Positions 3,823-64,000 of a stretch of 64,000 nucleotides of DNA are shown piece by piece (the first letter of the stretch is position 1; every line of letters begins with the position of its first letter). This DNA comes from Atribacterota bacterium (lineage in GTDB: Bacteria > Atribacterota > Phoenicimicrobiia > Phoenicimicrobiales > Phoenicimicrobiaceae): the NCBI GenBank assembly GCA_038203565.1, contig JBBRDV010000002.1:14283-78282 (forward strand), written 5' to 3'. The notes beneath the pieces are model-generated. The model was not told the origin of the DNA. It did no database searches and worked only from the letters and a program-made list of their open reading frames with translations. The translations under genes were made by a program, and so were the position numbers.

Positions 3823-4452
3823 TTACTTTGTCCCGAATAACCTATCCCCAGCGTCACCTAAGCCCGGTACTATATATCCATGAGAATTTAGTCTTTCATC
3901 TACAGCCGCTGTATATACCTTTACATCTGGGTGGTATTTTTGTAACATATTTATACCTTCCGGTGCAGCAATTAAGCACATAAACTTTATATCTACTGTA
4001 CCGCATTTCTTGATATAATCTATACAGGCAACAGCCGTACCTCCGGTTGCTAACATGGGGTCAACTATAATAACTTTTCTATCTTTAATGTCAGATGGCA
4101 ATTTAGCATAATATTCTATAGGTTTTAAAGTTTCAGGATCACGATACATACCAATATGTCCTACTTTTGCAGAAGGAATAAGTTTCAATATCCCATCAAC
4201 CATGCCCAAACCTGCTCTTAAAATTGTCACAATAGCAATGTTTTTTCCCGAGATAATTTTACTTTTAGTCTTGCCAAGAGGGGTTTCAATTTCAATTTCC
4301 TCTAATTCTATTTCTCTGGTTGCTTCATAAGCTATTAAATTAGATAGCTCATCTACTAACTCTCTAAATTCTTTCATCTGAGTATTTTTATCTCTGATTA
4401 AAGTTATTTTGTGTTGTATTAAAGGGTGGTCTAAAATGATTACTTCTGACAA
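3823..4452 (-). CDS. upp: Uracil phosphoribosyltransferase
   Basis: 209 aa; [14 protein letters not shown]-binding motif, and full-length UPRTase similarity. Confidence 0.9.
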
Positions 4453-4493
4453 TGACTTTTCCTCCTTATATGTCGTATCGATGCTGGTTTAAT

Positions 4494-15296: not shown

Positions 15297-15326
15297 CGAT
15301 ATACGATATACGACATACGATATACT
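15297..15326. repeat. (CGATATA)-type heptad array: cgatatacgatatacgacatacgatatact
   Basis: Seen directly, between the stop of the 496-aa ORF and the MBL gene start. Confidence 0.85.
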
Positions 15327-16815
15327 AAAATATTTCCCCAATTATTTTATTTAATCTTTCTTTTGCTAATTCCGGTTTAAAGTTTAATATAATGCTTCCC
15401 ATTTCCGTTTTTTGTATTATATTAAATGGCTCCAAAGAAAATACTTTAGTAATTTCTTCTACTTCATATTCTTGTACTCTTTCAAAACCAATGTATGTGT
15501 CTGTTCTTTGATTAATAATTTTGGTTAGTGACTCTACATTAAGATAAATTTTTTTGCCACTATTCTCGTGTAATAAATTAATAATGATATTAACCAGTTT
15601 TATTTTGTTATAAAGTATTTTTCTTTTTTCAAATAATTGAAAAATGTTATTCTCAGTAGAATTATCTACTAAAAAAATTGATTCCAAATTACTTAAAGAA
15701 AAAGGTAATTTATCATGTTCTTCTATCAGATTGCATAACCACCTTAGTTCAAACAATGTAACTTTGTTCTTATCTGTTTTTCGGTTTAGTTTATCATAAT
15801 CGAAATCCGGAGAAATAATCACCGAATAATCTGATTTTGTTTCCTCTTTTACCTTGCTCAACTCGTTCCAATGTTCATACTTTTGTATTTTTTCGTTTTT
15901 TTTATCTGATAACTTTGCATCAACAATTAAATTATATGTTTTATAATCTAATAATGCTTTTGCTAAAATAAAAGATACCTGTCCTTCTAATACAATAGAA
16001 GTTTCAAAACCCAAGAATTCAAACACTTTTTGAAGTAATTTTTTAAGATTTTCGTTATCTTCGGAACTTATCATTCTTAATTGCAATTTTTTAATTTCGC
16101 TCAACCAATCAAAGAGACCCCACATTTCTTCTTTCTCTTCGATAAATCGGAAGTCTTTCCTCAAAATATTATCAATATATTTAGAAAATAAATTCTCTCC
16201 GTTCACTTCTACCTCTAATACCCTTTCGCAAATCTCTGTATAAGTTAGAGATCGGCCTGCTTCTTGCAATATTTTAAAAATTTTTTCACTTAAATCGTCC
16301 TGAGGTTCTATCTTAGTCTCATCTTCTGTTACCAAAAAATATCGTTTTTTATCATAGTCAATAAGGCCAACAAAAACAACATCATTTACCTTTAATTTTT
16401 TCTTTTCATACCATTCTTTTAATCCCACTATATATTTTGAAACATTATTCACTATTGCTTCTATTTTATTTCCTTCTTTATCTATAAAGGTAATTTCAAC
16501 GGCATTTTCTTCTTTCGGGAAAAATGGTCTCATATAACTAGTTAAAAACATGGTACCGTCTTTCAAACAATAACTGGTGAGAGAATACTTAATGTTTGCA
16601 TCTTTATATTGCCATTTCACTAAACCCCATACTCCTCTTTTTATCCTCATAAATCTTTTATCTCCACTCATAGAGGCATTTACAGCATAATAGGGTTCTT
16701 TGACCTTTAATGGTCTTATTTTTGTTAACTCTTGAGTAATTTCGCGATAATGTAATGGCTTTTTATGTTTGATTAATATTTCATAAGCACTGTCAGCAAC
16801 TGATTTATGTTTCAT
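15325..16815 (-). CDS. Hypothetical protein with two HARE-HTH (RNAP delta-N-like) domains and a possible PD-(D/E)xK-like motif
   Basis: Two segments, ...DKRFMRIKRGVWGLVKW and ...DFRFIEEKEEMWGLFDW, match the F..x.G.WGL..W signature of HARE-HTH. D-x8-VDAK at LLDYKTYNLIVDAK resembles a PD-(D/E)xK core. Otherwise no homolog was recognised. Confidence 0.4.
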   Translation of the reverse strand: MKHKSVADSAYEILIKHKKPLHYREITQELTKIRPLKVKEPYYAVNASMSGDKRFMRIKRGVWGLVKWQYKDANIKYSLTSYCLKDGTMFLTSYMRPFFPKEENAVEITFIDKEGNKIEAIVNNVSKYIVGLKEWYEKKKLKVNDVVFVGLIDYDKKRYFLVTEDETKIEPQDDLSEKIFKILQEAGRSLTYTEICERVLEVEVNGENLFSKYIDNILRKDFRFIEEKEEMWGLFDWLSEIKKLQLRMISSEDNENLKKLLQKVFEFLGFETSIVLEGQVSFILAKALLDYKTYNLIVDAKLSDKKNEKIQKYEHWNELSKVKEETKSDYSVIISPDFDYDKLNRKTDKNKVTLFELRWLCNLIEEHDKLPFSLSNLESIFLVDNSTENNIFQLFEKRKILYNKIKLVNIIINLLHENSGKKIYLNVESLTKIINQRTDTYIGFERVQEYEVEEITKVFSLEPFNIIQKTEMGSIILNFKPELAKERLNKIIGEIF

Positions 16816-29782: not shown

Positions 29783-29871
29783 GCCGAAGTGGCGAAATTG
29801 GTAGACGCACTGGACTCAAAATCCAGCGAGCCTCACAGCTCGTGTCGGTTCGACTCCGACCTTCGGCACCA
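29783..29871 (+). tRNA. tRNA-Leu (anticodon CAA)
   Basis: Acceptor stem GCCGAAG/CTTCGGC, anticodon loop cuCAAaa, long variable arm, T-arm GGTTCGACTCC, and an encoded CCA. Confidence 0.9.
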
Positions 29872-38041: not shown

Positions 38042-39691
38042 TCAATATTCTAATTCAGGATCTATTCTACTTTCTGGTTCTTCCCCGTAATAAATCTTCA
38101 CTATATCATCAAAAACAGACTTTATATTTTCTTCTAATGCTCTATCAGTATAGCCTGCGGTATGAGGACTCATCACTACATTATCTAATTTATTAAAATC
38201 ATATTTACTGGGTAGTACTTCTCTCTGTTCCGAAGAAGGATATTGATACCAGGTATCTATTGCTGCTCCAGTAAGATTACCTTCTTTTAAAGATTTAAAT
38301 AAAGCTTCCTCGTCTATTACCACTCCTCGGGAAATATTTATAAGATATTTTCCCTTCATTAACTTTAGCTCTTTCTTTCCAATTAATCCCTTGGTTTCCT
38401 TAGTCAGGGGAACAGCTACCACAATAAAATTTGATTCCTTAATCACTTTTTCTAAATCTTTTTTTTCTCCTAAAAATTCCAAAATATTTTTCTTTTTTAA
38501 ATCCTTCTCCTCTATCTTCCTTTTTAAAGCAAACACTTTCATGCCTAAGGTATGACCAATTTTAGCAATCTCCCATCCAATTGAACCCAAACCTATTATT
38601 CCTAAACTTTTACCCTGAAGTTGAACCGTAGGTTCTTTGACAGTAAAGCCATGCCACCTACCCAATCTCAAATCTCTGTCGTTACGAACAATATTTTTAG
38701 CTAAAGCTAAAATAAGAGCGAAGGCATGTTCAGCAACTGCAAACTTATTGGCATGGATATTACAAATAAATATGTCTGGGTAATTTTTATATAAGCTAAA
38801 ATCTAATTTATCTACCCCTGCAAAAGGAATTTGAATTAATTTTAATTTCTTAGCCTGTTCAAGGTCTTCTTTACTGAAATTTTCTCCTATCACCGCTTCA
38901 ACATCTTTGAGGTATTTTTTAATAGTTTCTCTTTCATCCTTTTTAGGTATAATAAACTCTAAATTAAGTTTTGCTTTTTTATTTAATTCATTAAATGCCT
39001 TCTCCCATACTTGAGGTTTCACCATCTTGCTTAATATCAATATTTTCATCTTTGGCCTGCTCTTGGTCTCTCTTTTTCTTCCCGATTCTTGTAAAAAGTT
39101 CCGAACTGCCATTATATGTTTACACTCGAGTTTTAATTTTCGAGCTCTTCTTAAAAAATCTATACATTCGCACTGAGGGATATTTATATCAACCTTATAA
39201 TATTTTCCCGGCTTTGAACTACTTACTAAAAAATAATCATTTTTTTGTTCTACCTTTAAATCTTTAGCAGACTGTTCCCTCTTGCTTATTTCTTCTTCAG
39301 TCAGAGCTCTTTTAGCTAAGCCATCAGCCATGGTGTTGTCATCTCTTCTATTCCAGATGAAATATACTTTCCCTGGAATGGTTCGAATGATCTCTTCAAC
39401 CCGATTAAATAGTGGAATTATTCCCTTATTTTTAACTTTGTATTTTTTATTTAACTGCTTAACCAATAGTTGGCTATCACAATATATATCTATCCTCTCA
39501 GGGTTTATTTCTTTTACCTCTTCCAACCCTCTAATTAAGGCTTTATATTCAGCAATATTATTTGTTCCATAACCGATAGCTTCACTTATTTTTTTAAACA
39601 ATTCTCCATCTTTATAAATCACTATACCAATTGCCATATTCCCTGGGTTGGGGTAACAGGCGCCATCTACTTTTATTAATATCTTAGACAT
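38042..39691 (-). CDS. Three-domain fusion: RNase HI-like domain + SWIM zinc finger + D-isomer-specific 2-hydroxyacid dehydrogenase
   Basis: Residues 1-135 carry the RNase H DEDD residues (VDGAC, AEYKAL, CDSQ, ADGLA). Residues ~170-195 carry CEC-x14-CKH (SWIM). Residues ~210-549 carry the NAD fold GIIGLGSIGWEIA plus the catalytic NISRG, IDEEAL and SPHTAG. It is one uninterrupted 549-aa ORF. Confidence 0.6.
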   Translation of the reverse strand: MSKILIKVDGACYPNPGNMAIGIVIYKDGELFKKISEAIGYGTNNIAEYKALIRGLEEVKEINPERIDIYCDSQLLVKQLNKKYKVKNKGIIPLFNRVEEIIRTIPGKVYFIWNRRDDNTMADGLAKRALTEEEISKREQSAKDLKVEQKNDYFLVSSSKPGKYYKVDINIPQCECIDFLRRARKLKLECKHIMAVRNFLQESGRKRETKSRPKMKILILSKMVKPQVWEKAFNELNKKAKLNLEFIIPKKDERETIKKYLKDVEAVIGENFSKEDLEQAKKLKLIQIPFAGVDKLDFSLYKNYPDIFICNIHANKFAVAEHAFALILALAKNIVRNDRDLRLGRWHGFTVKEPTVQLQGKSLGIIGLGSIGWEIAKIGHTLGMKVFALKRKIEEKDLKKKNILEFLGEKKDLEKVIKESNFIVVAVPLTKETKGLIGKKELKLMKGKYLINISRGVVIDEEALFKSLKEGNLTGAAIDTWYQYPSSEQREVLPSKYDFNKLDNVVMSPHTAGYTDRALEENIKSVFDDIVKIYYGEEPESRIDPELEY

Positions 39692-40035: not shown

Positions 40036-40770
40036 ATGAATATAGATGAAAAAATAAGGTATGCTTTTGAACATACTGAAATATTAAGAAGACCTAAACA
40101 ACTAATATCTACTTTTGGTTCCTCGGTAATTCATTATTATGTTCTAACTGAACCGGTATATTCTGAATTTACCAAAGATAATTTAGAAACTGTAGTTAGG
40201 GAGGGAAAAGTTAGCTGGTATCAACCTAAATTACTTACTCCTTCTTATATGTTTAGAATAGAAGGGTTTAGCGGAGAAGCTAAAAAGGCTTTTGAAATAC
40301 TGGCCAGCCAATATCCTGATTTAGCAGGAATTCTTTATAAATTTAAGGTTAACAAAGAACTTGATGAAATGAATTTCGTTTCCGGTCCTTTGTTAACCGT
40401 AGCAGAAAATATTAACCATGAGATTGATAAAAAGGGAGATACCCTTTGTGCCGTTATTAAGGGTATAGCTGGTCTATGGGACGTATCTCTTTCGAAGTTT
40501 ATTTTAGATATGATGGTTAGAAGTGTTTATACAGCTCAGGTACCTGATTTTAGAAAAAGAGGGTTTATAGGCGTAAACCAGATTGGTCAAGCTATTATCT
40601 CTAAAGATAGATATGGTGTCCCGCTAGCTGCCCGAGAAGAAATAGAAATATTATTTAAATTAGTAGAAAAAGGAGAATTGGAGCCGGTTGAATTAAAAGA
40701 AGAACTGGATAATTGGGGATTATTCGAACATTATCAGGATAAATTTTTTAATCTCTTTAAAAAGAGGTAA
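40036..40770 (+). CDS. Hypothetical protein (244 aa), no recognisable domain
   Basis: Good RBS (TAGGAG) and clean ORF. No motif recognised. Confidence 0.5.
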   Translation: MNIDEKIRYAFEHTEILRRPKQLISTFGSSVIHYYVLTEPVYSEFTKDNLETVVREGKVSWYQPKLLTPSYMFRIEGFSGEAKKAFEILASQYPDLAGILYKFKVNKELDEMNFVSGPLLTVAENINHEIDKKGDTLCAVIKGIAGLWDVSLSKFILDMMVRSVYTAQVPDFRKRGFIGVNQIGQAIISKDRYGVPLAAREEIEILFKLVEKGELEPVELKEELDNWGLFEHYQDKFFNLFKKR

Positions 40771-55946: not shown

Positions 55947-56330
55947 TTAGCCTCTTAAAATATAATGCATTTTAACTTCTTTTGACTTAAAAAAATTCTT
56001 AGTAAATTCTGCTACTACCGAAGGATCATAATATTTACAACTAAATATATCTAGGTAAGCGTTATTAGTACTATTGGCAAAATGTCCTGAAATTAAAGAA
56101 GTTTCAATCAACTGCACCATAGAAAACCCAGCAACTCTCTCGTCTTCACCAAAATGAACAACTTGAGTATCCCCAAATTGTTTCATTTCAATTAATTCAC
56201 AAAGTTCTTTAACATATCTTTTTATTGCTTCTGCATCTCTTATGATTTGAGGGTCACAATTATAAAGATCTACGCTAGTTAACAAACCCCAGACTTTATT
56301 AGCATAATATTCTTTTTTTAAATTTTTCAT
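55947..56330 (-). CDS. SpeH-like paralog (AdoMet decarboxylase fold) lacking the canonical ES processing site and the HTWPE motif
   Basis: Alignable to the upstream SpeH (LYNC..., ...YLDIFSC), but it has IETSLISGHF in place of ISESHFSIHTWPE. It overlaps speH by 4 nt. Confidence 0.55.
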   Translation of the reverse strand: MKNLKKEYYANKVWGLLTSVDLYNCDPQIIRDAEAIKRYVKELCELIEMKQFGDTQVVHFGEDERVAGFSMVQLIETSLISGHFANSTNNAYLDIFSCKYYDPSVVAEFTKNFFKSKEVKMHYILRG

Positions 56331-56719
56331 TTTTTACACACCTCTGGCTTATGTAAAAGTTTTACTGGAAAATCTAAAATCCCTCTCTTCACTTCAATCA
56401 TAGAAATATTGCCTACTTCTAACTCCCTTTTAAGGTATTCTAAGGCTAAGTTACTTTTAATCTCATCGCCGCAGGTAAAAATATCTAAAGCACAATAGCC
56501 ATATTCAGGCCAGGTATGGATGGAAAAATGGGATTCGGAAATTACCACCACCCCACTTACTCCATGGGGAGAAAATTTATGGAAGTTTGAATTTAAGGCA
56601 GTTGCTCCTGAAATTCTTACTGACTCTAGTAATAGTTCCTCCATTTTTGACACATTGTTTATTACCTTTGTATTACAATTATACAGCTCTATCAATAAAT
56701 GATTTCCTAAATAGTTCAT
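56327..56719 (-). CDS. speH: S-adenosylmethionine decarboxylase proenzyme, small pyruvoyl type (SpeH)
   Basis: The ES processing site (VVISESHFSIHTWPE) and the conserved FTCG motif are both present; 130 aa. Confidence 0.8.
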   Translation of the reverse strand: MNYLGNHLLIELYNCNTKVINNVSKMEELLLESVRISGATALNSNFHKFSPHGVSGVVVISESHFSIHTWPEYGYCALDIFTCGDEIKSNLALEYLKRELEVGNISMIEVKRGILDFPVKLLHKPEVCKK

Positions 56720-61627: not shown

Positions 61628-61905
61628 ATAAATCCCTCCAGTTTACGCTTTTCGGTTTCTATGAAATACTTTATAAATATACAACAATTTACTATCAATA
61701 ATTTATTCACAGTAATAATTATAACATATCTTTAATTCGTAACCATATTTATTTAATATTTTTAAATTTTTTTAAAAAAAAAGAAGGACTTTTATAAATT
61801 GATGTAGTATATATATTTAGTTATGTTTAGAATGTATGATAGTAAATTAAAAAATAGTACCAAGAAAAATATTTCTCCTAATTAAATACAGTAATCTGTA
61901 TGAAA

Positions 61906-62130
61906 GTAGGGGGAGAAGTCTTTTCTTTTATAGAAAAGGAGCCGAAGGGGCACGATGTATGATACATTTAAACTCTCAGGCAAAAGGACCCTTACTGGAC
62001 AGAACTCTGGAAAGTTTTTTAATAAACACCGAAGGGGCAATTTTTTGTTATCTATTGATAACCAAAAAAAATCTCTCAGGTAAAAAGACAGAGCAGGAAT
62101 AATCTTTAAATATTCTTTTTCTGTCTTTTA
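61906..62130 (+). ncRNA. Tandem glycine riboswitch (two aptamers) with a terminator-type expression platform
   Basis: Aptamer 1: GGGGGAGAAG ... GCCGAAGGGGCA ... CUCUCAGGCAAAAGGACC. Aptamer 2: ACUCUGGAAAG ... CACCGAAGGGGCAA ... UCUCUCAGGUAAAAAGACAGAGC. Both match the glycine-riboswitch conserved cores. The hairpin aaagacagag...ctctgtcttt plus a T-tract (62083-62130) overlaps the 3-prime P1 strand of aptamer 2. Confidence 0.8.
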
Positions 62131-62175
62131 TTATTTTAACTAAAATAAATAACAAAAAACTAAGGAGGCACAAAA

Positions 62176-63873
62176 ATGAAATCAGATCTACAGATTGCTC
62201 AAGAAGCACAACTAAAACCGATCACCGAAATCGCTCTATCTATCGGAATAGGAGAAGACGAATTAGATCTCTACGGTAAATACAAAGCCAAGGTCACTCC
62301 GGATATCCTAAAGAGACTACAAGACCGTCCTCAAGCAAAATACATCGTAGTAACTGCCATCACTCCTACCCCTTTAGGCGAAGGTAAGACGGTAACCTCT
62401 ATCGGATTAGGCCAGGGTCTGGCTAAGATAGGTAAAAAAGTAATAAATACCCTGCGCGAACCCTCCATGGGACCGGTCTTCGGAATAAAGGGTGGAGCAG
62501 CAGGAGGAGGATATTCGCAAGTCGTTCCCATGGAAGACTTAAATCTACACTTTACCGGAGATATCCATGCGGTAGGAGCAGCCAATAACCTGCTCTGTGC
62601 TATGTTGGATACTCACCTGCAGAAAGGCAATAAATTAGGAATAGATATTCACAATATCAATATTAATCGAGTGGTGGATATCTCTGACCGAGCCCTGCGT
62701 CAAATCATCATCGGCTTAGGAGGAAAGGACAACGGTATTCCCCGCGAGACTAGCTATGATATTACCGTTGCTTCTGAGGTGATGGCTATCCTTTCTTTGG
62801 CTACTGATATCTTCGATCTTAGAGCAAGATTGGGTCGAATGACGGCAGCCTATACTACCGATAGTAAACCGGTAACTGCCGAAGACCTAAAAGCCGCAGG
62901 AGCGATGACCGTCCTTTTAAAAGATGCCTTAAAACCTAATCTCATTCAAACTTTAGAACACGGACCCTGCCTGATGCATTGCGGACCTTTTGCCAATATT
63001 GCCCATGGCAACAACTCCGTTTTGGCTGATCTAATCGCCTGTAAATTAGCGGACTATGTAGTCACCGAATCCGGTTTTGGTGCTGATATGGGTTTTGAGA
63101 AGATGTGTAATATAAAATGTCGGACCAGTGGTCTTAAAGTAGATGCTGCAGTAGTAGTATGTTCTATCCGCGCCTTAAAGATGCACGGAGGGGCTATTAA
63201 GGTAGTGGCTGGTAAACCTTTAGACCAGGAAACTTTGGCCAAAGAAGATTTAGAATCAGTGGCTAAAGGGTGTGAGAACTTAGAAAAACAGGTAGAAAAT
63301 GTTCTCCTGCACGGAGTTCCTCCCGTCGTAGTCATTAATCGATTTACTACCGATACCCCAGCTGAGATCGAACTAGTTAAAGAAAAAGCCTTAGCTGCTG
63401 GAGCAACTACTGCGGTGACCCATGAAGTCTGGGCCAAAGGGGGAGCAGGTGGAATCGAATTAGCCCAAGCGGTGGTAGAGGCTGCTAAAAAATCTAATCA
63501 TTTTCACTTTCTTTATCCCTTAGATATACCTATTAAAGAAAAGATCGAGACTATAGCCACCAAGATCTATGGCGCTGAGGGAGTTGATTATGCTCCTCTG
63601 GCTGAAAAGAAAATTAAACTTTATACTGAGTTAGGTTTTGATAAACTGCCTATGTGTATGGCTAAGACTCATCTTTCTTTATCTCATGATCCTTCCGTAA
63701 AGGGTAGACCCCGTAATTTCCGCATACCTATTCGAGATGTGAGGGCTTCAGTAGGAGCAGGTTTTCTCTATCCTCTTTTGGGAACTATGATGACTATGCC
63801 TGGATTGCCTTCTGTACCTGCGGCTATGAAAGTAGATATCGATAAAGAAGGAAAGACAGTGGGATTATTCTAA
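62176..63873 (+). CDS. fhs: Formate--tetrahydrofolate ligase
   Basis: Full-length FTHFS with the ATP-binding motif PTPLGEGKTVTSIGL; strong RBS AAGGAGG. Its GC content (~45%) and codon use differ from neighbouring genes. Confidence 0.95.
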   Translation: MKSDLQIAQEAQLKPITEIALSIGIGEDELDLYGKYKAKVTPDILKRLQDRPQAKYIVVTAITPTPLGEGKTVTSIGLGQGLAKIGKKVINTLREPSMGPVFGIKGGAAGGGYSQVVPMEDLNLHFTGDIHAVGAANNLLCAMLDTHLQKGNKLGIDIHNININRVVDISDRALRQIIIGLGGKDNGIPRETSYDITVASEVMAILSLATDIFDLRARLGRMTAAYTTDSKPVTAEDLKAAGAMTVLLKDALKPNLIQTLEHGPCLMHCGPFANIAHGNNSVLADLIACKLADYVVTESGFGADMGFEKMCNIKCRTSGLKVDAAVVVCSIRALKMHGGAIKVVAGKPLDQETLAKEDLESVAKGCENLEKQVENVLLHGVPPVVVINRFTTDTPAEIELVKEKALAAGATTAVTHEVWAKGGAGGIELAQAVVEAAKKSNHFHFLYPLDIPIKEKIETIATKIYGAEGVDYAPLAEKKIKLYTELGFDKLPMCMAKTHLSLSHDPSVKGRPRNFRIPIRDVRASVGAGFLYPLLGTMMTMPGLPSVPAAMKVDIDKEGKTVGLF

Positions 63874-64000
63874 ATTAGTCGACTATCTAATAAGGAGGTG
63901 ATATTTGGAAAATAATTAGAAAACAGTATTAAAATGAAATTTAATAAAAATTATTAAATAATAAAATAACATGGAGGAAATATATTAAATGACTAATAAA

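Follow-up and report, generated by a model that had tools for sequence, protein, structure and literature searches.

The right-hand end of a 64,000-nucleotide (nt) stretch of DNA from an Atribacterota bacterium (contig JBBRDV010000002.1; this whole stretch is "the window" below) carries, on the + strand, a tandem glycine riboswitch directly upstream of fhs, the gene for formate--tetrahydrofolate ligase. Taken together, sequence comparisons and folding calculations make it probable that this RNA is an ON switch through which glycine induces fhs in one operon with the glycine-cleavage (gcv) genes, where glycine binding, the transcription of fhs and gcv as one unit, and the oxidative direction of the pathway are the parts that we infer. 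An earlier annotation of the window, made from its letters and open reading frames (ORFs; the original prediction), had proposed a tandem glycine riboswitch at 61906-62175 and had regarded fhs as an unusual target for it.

Both aptamers were recognized by the standard Rfam glycine riboswitch model. In an Rfam scan of the whole window, RF00504 matched aptamer 1 at 61900-62001 (+) with 59.8 bits (E=7.4e-10), and aptamer 2, which the speed filters dropped from that scan, scored 52.2 bits (E=1.7e-10) at 62000-62101 (+) when it was searched alone, where the gathering score of RF00504 is 32 bits. At curated thresholds, the scan of all 64 kb returned two matches, a tRNA and glycine aptamer 1. These scores bear out the proposed tandem riboswitch, for which an RF00504 search had been named as the check, and all of the motifs cited for it are present (GGGAGAAG, CUCUGGAAAG, (C)CGAAGGGGCA(A), CUCUCAGGCAAAAGGAC, and CUCUCAGGUAAAAAGAC). 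The element does lie in the proposed range, but its true start is at 61895, ≈10 nt earlier, and its structured part ends at ≈62137; the 3' remainder of the range, to 62175, consists of spacer and a ribosome-binding site. The tandem model RF03166 (the glycine-GGAnGA variant) aligned end to end over 61896-62095 in permissive mode, including the P0/leader segment, and has the tandem architecture and leader-linker helix in common with the window RNA. However, membership in RF03166 was rejected, as the score of 89.2 bits falls short of the gathering score (110), and each window aptamer fits standard RF00504 instead. Because the RF03166 score is below its gathering score, we conclude that the window RNA is a standard tandem glycine riboswitch (RF00504 twice) and not the RF03166 variant. 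This identification is carried by the Rfam scores; the covariation described below is supporting evidence and is not strong alone.

The riboswitch and the genes that follow it are made up of these features, with the basis of each assignment in parentheses:

61895-61904 (+): leader, comprising the P0 5' strand UCUG, a 3-nt bulge UAU, and GAA (inspection, minimum free energy (MFE) folds, and RF03166 alignment)
61905-61996 (+): glycine aptamer 1 (RF00504, 59.8 bits; canonical pairs)
61997-62004 (+): inter-aptamer linker, comprising GGA (candidate non-bulged kink-turn strand), CAGA (P0 3' strand), and A (sequence and folds)
62005-62093 (+): glycine aptamer 2 (RF00504, 52.2 bits; canonical pairs)
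62083-62137 (+): intrinsic terminator, with its stem at 62083-62129 and a U-rich tail, UUUUAUUAUUUU, to 62137 (folding, z-score, and covariation)
62163-62169 (+): Shine-Dalgarno sequence AAGGAGG, 6 nt before the fhs start codon (sequence)
62176-63873 (+): fhs, formate--tetrahydrofolate ligase, 565 amino acids, the predicted first controlled gene (NF010030)
63874-63989 (+): fhs-gcvH spacer, 116 nt, AT-rich (sequence; terminator and promoter scan)
63990-64000 (+): first 11 nt of gcvH (ATGACTAATAA...), up to the end of the window (alignment to relatives)

The anatomy of the RNA is that of a conventional tandem switch. The P0 helix, in which UCUG (61895-61898) pairs with CAGA (62000-62003), was present in the MFE folds, and the UAU bulge and the GAA and GGA strands, with candidate G-A and A-G pairs, look like a kink-turn; a kink-turn formed by leader and linker has been described for many tandem glycine riboswitches. 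The linker is nearly invariant across relatives in the leader alignment. In aptamer 1, P1 is an 8-bp helix of 61905-61912 with 61989-61996 (AGUAGGGG/CCCUUACU), followed by J1/2 (GAGAAG), P2 (61919-61939, 7 bp), the P3/P3a/P3b arm (61941-61981, bearing CCGAAGGGGCA and CUCUCAGGC), and J3/1 (AAAAGGA). In aptamer 2, P1 has 5 bp (62005-62009 with 62089-62093; CUCUG/CAGAG), J1/2 is GAAAG, P2 is short and made of A-U pairs only, P3 (62028-62081) bears CCGAAGGGGCAA and CUCUCAGGU and has a long P3b hairpin, and J3/1 is AAAAAGA. Every pair in these helices is canonical in both aptamers, and the P1 lengths of 8 and 5 bp agree with the 8-9 and 5-6 bp published for tandem switches (PMC5066625).

The putative glycine pockets were compared with the consensus by alignment. 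The pocket of aptamer 1 contains G61944-C61977, G61948-C61975, G61950-C61973, G61949-U61974, and CUCUC, and the equivalent residues of aptamer 2 (62031-62037 and 62073-62077) are fully consensus. An intact pocket has three G-C pairs, a purine-U pair, and a glycine-contacting uracil (PMC7161355), and both P3 pockets appear to retain these features, with three G-C pairs, a G-U pair, and the uracils of CUCUC, where the identity of the glycine-contacting U is a putative assignment. The junction purines of aptamer 1 read GGAGAAG and AAAAGGAC (consensus GGAGAG and AAAAGGAC). Aptamer 2 departs from the consensus at two highly conserved purines, with GGAAAG for GGAGAG and AAAAAGAC for AAAAGGAC, and both of these core substitutions are invariant in seven genome sequences.

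The expression platform overlaps aptamer 2. The terminator hairpin (62083-62129) folds with -17.5 kcal/mol (z=-5.0); its core, G62087-C62125, holds GACAGAG, and its inner stem pairs 62095-62101 with 62111-62117. The segment GACAGAG (62087-62093) has two roles, as the 3' strand of aptamer 2 P1 and within the terminator 5' arm, as the original prediction had pointed out in proposing an ON layout, and the calculated folds switch between the two structures. With the leader cut at 62095, the MFE fold (-56.8 kcal/mol) contains P0 and both whole aptamers, including aptamer 2 P1, whereas in the MFE fold of the full leader (-69.5 kcal/mol) aptamer 2 P1 is open and the terminator is formed; forcing this P1 in the full leader costs at least 7.5 kcal/mol. 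Equivalent terminator hairpins of -13.8 to -22.7 kcal/mol were found in four relatives. In these models, the layout is that of the usual kinetic transcriptional ON switch, in which aptamer 2 P1 and the terminator are mutually exclusive.

On this model, P0, aptamer 1, and aptamer 2 would fold while the leader is being transcribed. Bound glycine would hold the 5-bp aptamer 2 P1 together with the purine stack above it, GACAGAG would then be unavailable, and RNA polymerase would enter fhs. Without glycine, GACAGAG and the A-run that precedes it would pair with CUUUUUCUGUCUUUU to form the terminator, and transcription would end at the U-rich tail at ≈62126-62137. Glycine and the inter-aptamer contacts would have to keep P1 in place while polymerase passes.

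The gene directly downstream of the riboswitch is fhs, as originally proposed: its product matches NF010030 over the full length (residues 1-565) with 819.2 bits, compared to a cut-off of 652. The last bases of the window, GGAGGAAATATATTAAATGACTAATAAA, correspond to the ribosome-binding site and start of gcvH. They are identical in two related loci, L024 and L001, and a third, L003, shows a few substitutions; the gcvH ORFs of these three loci score 150-156 bits against GcvH models (cut-off 117). An exact-sequence look-up of the Fhs encoded in the window returned no recorded contig. Among contigs representing one genome per species, the closest Fhs relative is that of L024, from Candidatus Sediminicultor sextus (97% amino acid identity), and the Fhs relatives place the window in the Atribacterota, class JS1 (Phoenicimicrobiia), genus Ca. 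Sediminicultor. The window and L024 are 83-94% identical in nucleotide sequence across their common region. In L024, the gene order is fhs-gcvH-gcvPA-gcvPB-gcvT, followed by a 395-nt gap and an agcS-type amino-acid carrier gene, and L001 and L003 begin the same series after fhs. Co-oriented gcvH, gcvPA, gcvPB, and gcvT follow fhs in these three loci and in 18 metagenome contigs, where the window itself shows 11 nt of gcvH. On the other side, guaA, purA, and purB lie upstream of the fhs leader and are divergent from it.

The view that fhs is an unusual target, away from gcv, does not hold up against these relatives. It looked odd because the window ends 11 nt into the following gcvH, where the relatives continue with gcvH-gcvPA-gcvPB-gcvT. 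Since gcv follows fhs in the relatives and the window ends in the start of gcvH, the context is the classic glycine-cleavage context, and an fhs gene at the front of a gcv operon is much less unusual than a lone fhs. A terminator scan of the spacer after fhs in the window found no terminator-like site on the + strand, which makes co-transcription of fhs with gcv likely. The promoter scan did not pinpoint a promoter in this AT-rich spacer; the scanned region gave 5 promoter-like matches compared to 6.4 expected from shuffles. We consider it reasonably likely that the riboswitch heads an fhs-gcvH-gcvPA-gcvPB-gcvT operon in which fhs was recruited as the first gene, and agcS, a Na+/alanine-glycine symporter gene, may be part of the same operon.

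The arrangement recurs within the lineage. Among genome contigs, the tandem riboswitch precedes fhs at six loci (L001, L002, L003, L004, L008, and L024), where the Rfam match in L004 and L008 is to aptamer 2 and not to aptamer 1. It was found upstream of none of the 74 other fhs loci by an Rfam scan of the Atribacterota subset, by regular expression, or by a custom covariance model of aptamer 1, which was run over all 80 fhs loci (1.24 Mb) and gave no further riboswitch outside the JS1 group. Weak matches of this model in L020 and L030 (E 0.1-0.4) were discounted, as they are not upstream of fhs, and loose regular-expression matches to the glycine core in L025 and L038 proved on reading the sequences to be chance matches within coding regions. 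A MAFFT alignment of aptamers 1 and 2 was structurally poor and was not used for a model.

Metagenomes were scanned for a sequence pattern that is specific to the variant form of aptamer 2, which yielded 86 contigs. In 37 of these, an fhs gene (89-98% identical) starts 50-250 nt after the aptamer, and three further contigs are flanked by guaA and are truncated. Nearly all contigs with enough sequence after fhs (18 of 19) continue into gcvH-gcvPA-gcvPB-gcvT (and agcS). The linkage of a glycine riboswitch to fhs, which the original prediction had suggested looking for in other genomes of the lineage, is therefore present in six genome loci and 37 metagenome contigs. Across seven sequences, 60 pairs of the structure are 97% paired, and in 39 unique fhs-type leaders the helices are 94-100% paired (P0, 94%). 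Double changes occur in 10 pairs of P0 and the aptamer helices in these 39 leaders, which are close relatives with modest covariation. They affect 1 pair of P0 and 3, 2, and 2 pairs of aptamer 1 P1, P2, and P3b, respectively, and 5 pairs of the terminator inner stem also show double changes. In aptamer 2 P3b, a compensatory U-A to C-G change is present in 17-27 of the 39 leaders.

The exceptional contig, L081, encodes the glycine riboswitch and fhs (90% identical), directly after which a tetrahydrofolate (THF) riboswitch (81 bits) and a folT-like ORF take the place of gcvH. Its glycine aptamer (4356-4457, -) and THF aptamer (2379-2473, -; both in the stored orientation) have fhs as the sole gene between them. 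The riboswitch-fhs pair can thus stand alone, since a THF riboswitch and folT follow fhs in L081. A second JS1 Fhs group, at 81% identity, lacks the riboswitch (L005, 5129-7593; L006, 2557-10708; L007, 145-7986). L006 and L007 have plain AT-rich spacers before fhs, with a promoter-like TTGACA-17-TATACT in L007, and L005 has ectoine-degradation-like genes, fhs, a THF riboswitch, and folT. One metagenome-assembled genome, UBA4082, contains a copy of the riboswitch type (L004) alongside one that lacks the riboswitch (L007); the two are either paralogues or the product of a mixed bin. No known RNA was found at E≤1 in the gcvT-agcS gap of L024 or upstream of the L006 fhs. The flanks of fhs thus come in four combinations, with or without the glycine riboswitch and with gcv or THF-folT downstream; an origin of these combinations by recombination within fhs is unsupported, where the identity profiles are flat along the gene.

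Two other characteristics of the locus were recorded. The GC content of fhs in the window is 44%, compared to 30-36% for guaA, purA, and purB, and in L024 the values are 44% for fhs, 30-36% for the gcv genes, and 41.5% for agcS; high expression, strong constraint, or past transfer could each account for the fhs value. In addition, some relatives have insertions of 100-800 nt, either ahead of fhs and after the terminator or in the fhs-gcvH interval (L004, 3540-3728; L008, 2440-2607; L001, 2260-2545; and the fhs-gcvH gap of L100). They contain GC-rich inverted or direct repeats, such as GCGTATAGCG/CGCTATACGC, and look like small mobile repeat elements.

The regulatory logic points to glycine catabolism. 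At high glycine, the glycine cleavage system and Fhs would be induced together, and glycine would be split to CO2, NH3, and methylene-THF. FolD, encoded elsewhere, would oxidize the one-carbon (C1) unit to 10-formyl-THF, from which Fhs, running in reverse, would release formate and free THF with the gain of one ATP. Glycine cleavage loads a C1 unit on THF, and sustained flux needs this unit to be removed. The addition of fhs makes biochemical sense, because the loaded C1 unit must leave THF, and the agcS symporter gene, the last of the cluster, is consistent with glycine import. The original prediction that fhs is wired into glycine catabolism is supported, and in L081 fhs alone lies between the glycine and THF riboswitches. 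Because a glycine ON switch would drive fhs together with gcv, a glycine-consuming direction is suggested for this copy of the JS1 "reductive glycine pathway" gene set. That this copy is a glycine-inducible catabolic module yielding CO2, NH3, formate, and ATP is a proposition for which we see the balance as roughly even.

Several observations weigh against a glycine-induced, catabolic fhs-gcv operon. The fhs-gcvH spacers of relatives range from 95 to 890 nt, some with inserted repeats, and an internal gcv promoter in a long spacer is possible. The folD gene and the gene for the L-protein are not in the cluster. The two purine substitutions in aptamer 2 could weaken its glycine binding, and in the second JS1 Fhs group, L006 and L007 carry the series fhs-gcvH-gcvPA-gcvPB-gcvT-agcS without a riboswitch. 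Because Fhs and the glycine cleavage system can each run in either direction, the oxidative direction is suggested by regulatory logic only. Finally, a P5 pseudoknot was not found by eye, with at most 3 nt of complementarity in the window, L003, and L004. This pairing of the aptamer 1 P3b loop with sequence 3' of aptamer 2 is semi-conserved (≈79%) and not obligatory, and it is present in ≈87% of ON riboswitches upstream of aminomethyltransferase genes (PMC7161355).

These observations were weighed in terms of three alternatives. The riboswitch may control fhs alone, with gcv expressed from its own promoter in the fhs-gcvH spacer. This arrangement is consistent with L081, where a THF riboswitch and folT, and not gcv, come after the riboswitch-fhs pair, with the long fhs-gcvH spacers (116 nt in the window and ≈890 nt in L100), some of which contain insertions, and with two promoter-like matches within the spacer of the window. 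However, the promoter-like matches (5 found, 6.4 expected) are not above those in shuffles, and no terminator-like site follows fhs. Moreover, the fhs-gcvH-gcvPA-gcvPB-gcvT order is kept in 18 of the 19 informative contigs and in the riboswitch-less relatives, whose fhs-gcvH gap is just ≈35-55 nt. We regard exclusive control of fhs as unlikely. For aptamer 2, the fully consensus P3 pocket in the alignment (three G-C pairs, the G-U pair, and the uracils) argues against the idea that aptamer 1 alone senses glycine and that aptamer 2 is a structural partner that supplies the switching helix, similar to a type-1 singlet. This idea draws on the two conserved-purine substitutions and lower score of aptamer 2, and on the finding that in ON switches in a gcv context aptamer 1 is the better conserved and dominant binder (PMC6944388, PMC7161355). 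The substitutions probably fall within the purine-purine stack that lies above P1; in the Bacillus subtilis glycine switch, mutations of this stack changed (raised) the amplitude and did not abolish function (PMC7161355). We regard sensing by aptamer 1 alone as rather unlikely.

The third alternative is an anabolic function, in which induced fhs (and gcv) would produce 10-formyl-THF out of formate and methylene-THF for the synthesis of purines while their precursor glycine is abundant, or would belong to a reductive glycine route that assimilates formate. In keeping with such a role, guaA-purA-purB are in every case transcribed away from the operon. Purine synthesis uses glycine and two formyl-THF. 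In addition, a reductive glycine pathway has been proposed for CO2 and formate assimilation in this phylum (PMC11227167). By contrast, a pathway that makes glycine is expected to be repressed, not induced, by glycine; a glycine/alanine symporter gene follows the operon; and published glycine ON switches ahead of gcv, which form the majority class, serve glycine catabolism or detoxification (PMC7161355, PMC12452182). We consider an anabolic role very unlikely, and we retain the interpretation of a glycine-induced fhs-gcv operon with an ON riboswitch.

ON switches that serve glycine catabolism make up over 80% of the tandem glycine riboswitches (PMC7161355), and the window RNA resembles the B. 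subtilis gcvT-gcvPA-gcvPB riboswitch, a member of the ON class that precedes aminomethyltransferase genes in PMC7161355, in its two homologous aptamers joined by a short linker, the long P1 followed by a short P1, the P0/kink-turn-like leader, the competition of a terminator with aptamer 2 P1, and the glycine-induced gcv expression, which is predicted here. Unlike the B. subtilis switch, it is followed first by fhs and then by the order gcvH-gcvPA-gcvPB-gcvT, has no evident P5, carries GGAAAG and AAAAAGAC in aptamer 2, and belongs to an uncultured Atribacterota host of ≈32% GC. As described by Tezuka and Ohnishi (2014, as cited in PMC12452182), the gcvT-gcvH(-glyA-sdaA) and gcvP switches of Streptomyces griseus are also ON switches, and there too a gcv operon is extended by C1/serine enzymes. 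In that account, S. griseus adds glyA and sdaA, which take the C1 unit to serine and pyruvate, whereas the window adds fhs, which would take it to formate with ATP.

The gene content of the window locus also resembles the route proposed for acetate oxidation through glycine cleavage in JS1 of the same lineage, a reversed reductive glycine pathway with the same enzymes, namely Fhs, those of glycine cleavage, and a FolD whose gene lies elsewhere (Nobu 2015, as cited in PMC6281690; PMC11227167). Lee et al. (PMC6281690) put forward syntrophic acetate oxidation by way of glycine cleavage, and Jiao et al. (PMC11227167) placed the reductive glycine pathway as a central hub of Atribacterota and left its direction open. 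These papers infer the pathway from gene presence, whereas the window adds a riboswitch and an fhs-gcv operon structure as regulatory evidence; the term "riboswitch" had no match in the full text of PMC6281690 or PMC11227167. A link between a glycine riboswitch and fhs was not found in a full-text literature search of incomplete coverage, and the association appears to be unreported. Thus, the RNA class, mechanism, and main target pathway are already known, and the novelty resides in the host lineage, in fhs as the first gene under control, and in a regulatory pointer to the direction of the pathway.

A second, paralogous tandem glycine riboswitch, with an aptamer 2 nearly identical to that of the window, is carried by 44 of the 86 metagenome contigs, namely L082 (9375-9650, -) and 43 similar contigs among L083-L166. 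In L082, aptamer 1 scores 66 bits in Rfam, and the riboswitch has its own terminator. It is followed by a PgeF/YfiH-family gene (TIGR00726, 171 bits) and sarcosine-oxidase-like alpha fragments, with a soxB/ThiO-like FAD dehydrogenase and a Liv-type ABC transporter further downstream, and nrdD-nrdG lie upstream. The L082-type contigs would belong to the same lineage, judging from the near identity of the riboswitches and their common source metagenomes only. Ser or Gly that has been wrongly built into position 1 of peptidoglycan precursors is removed by PgeF (PMC8844914, PMC12280929), and induction of a PgeF-type enzyme by glycine would be logical; no paper linking a glycine riboswitch to PgeF was found in the literature search.

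Other observations concern the remainder of the window. From 1 to 61627, the ORFs of at least 110 amino acids up to guaA are all on the - strand except for about five, the GC skew is negative throughout (-0.07 to -0.27), and the fhs operon is the first + strand unit at the right-hand end. This strand switch is not an obvious replication origin, because - strand genes (groEL and tsaD) resume after agcS in L024. A 549-amino-acid ORF at 38042-39691 (-) has the unusual combination of an RNase H/RVT_3 domain (residues 4-130) fused to a D-2-hydroxyacid dehydrogenase domain (residues 243-543). Two adjoining short ORFs similar to speD (S-adenosylmethionine decarboxylase; 127 and 130 amino acids) lie at 55947-56719 (-), one with a strong and one with a weak model match, next to a spermidine synthase gene. 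The sole match of a 496-amino-acid ORF at 15325-16815 (-) is an N-terminal HARE-HTH domain, and a 244-amino-acid ORF at 40036-40770 (+) had no Pfam match. The tRNA at 29783-29868 (+; 86 nt) has a long variable arm and the anticodon loop CUCAAAA and is probably tRNA-Leu(CAA).

The riboswitch itself is ordinary, and the value of the finding lies in its occurrence in a very abundant, uncultured subseafloor lineage. The genes found behind glycine riboswitches would now include fhs and, at a sister locus, an operon headed by a PgeF gene, and these two riboswitches together would constitute a small glycine regulon in an uncultured phylum. Predictions follow that metatranscriptomes of JS1-rich sediments could test. 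If the proposed regulation is correct, it would provide a sequence-based pointer to the direction in which this pathway runs, between the assimilation of formate and CO2 and the oxidation of acetate or amino acids through glycine.

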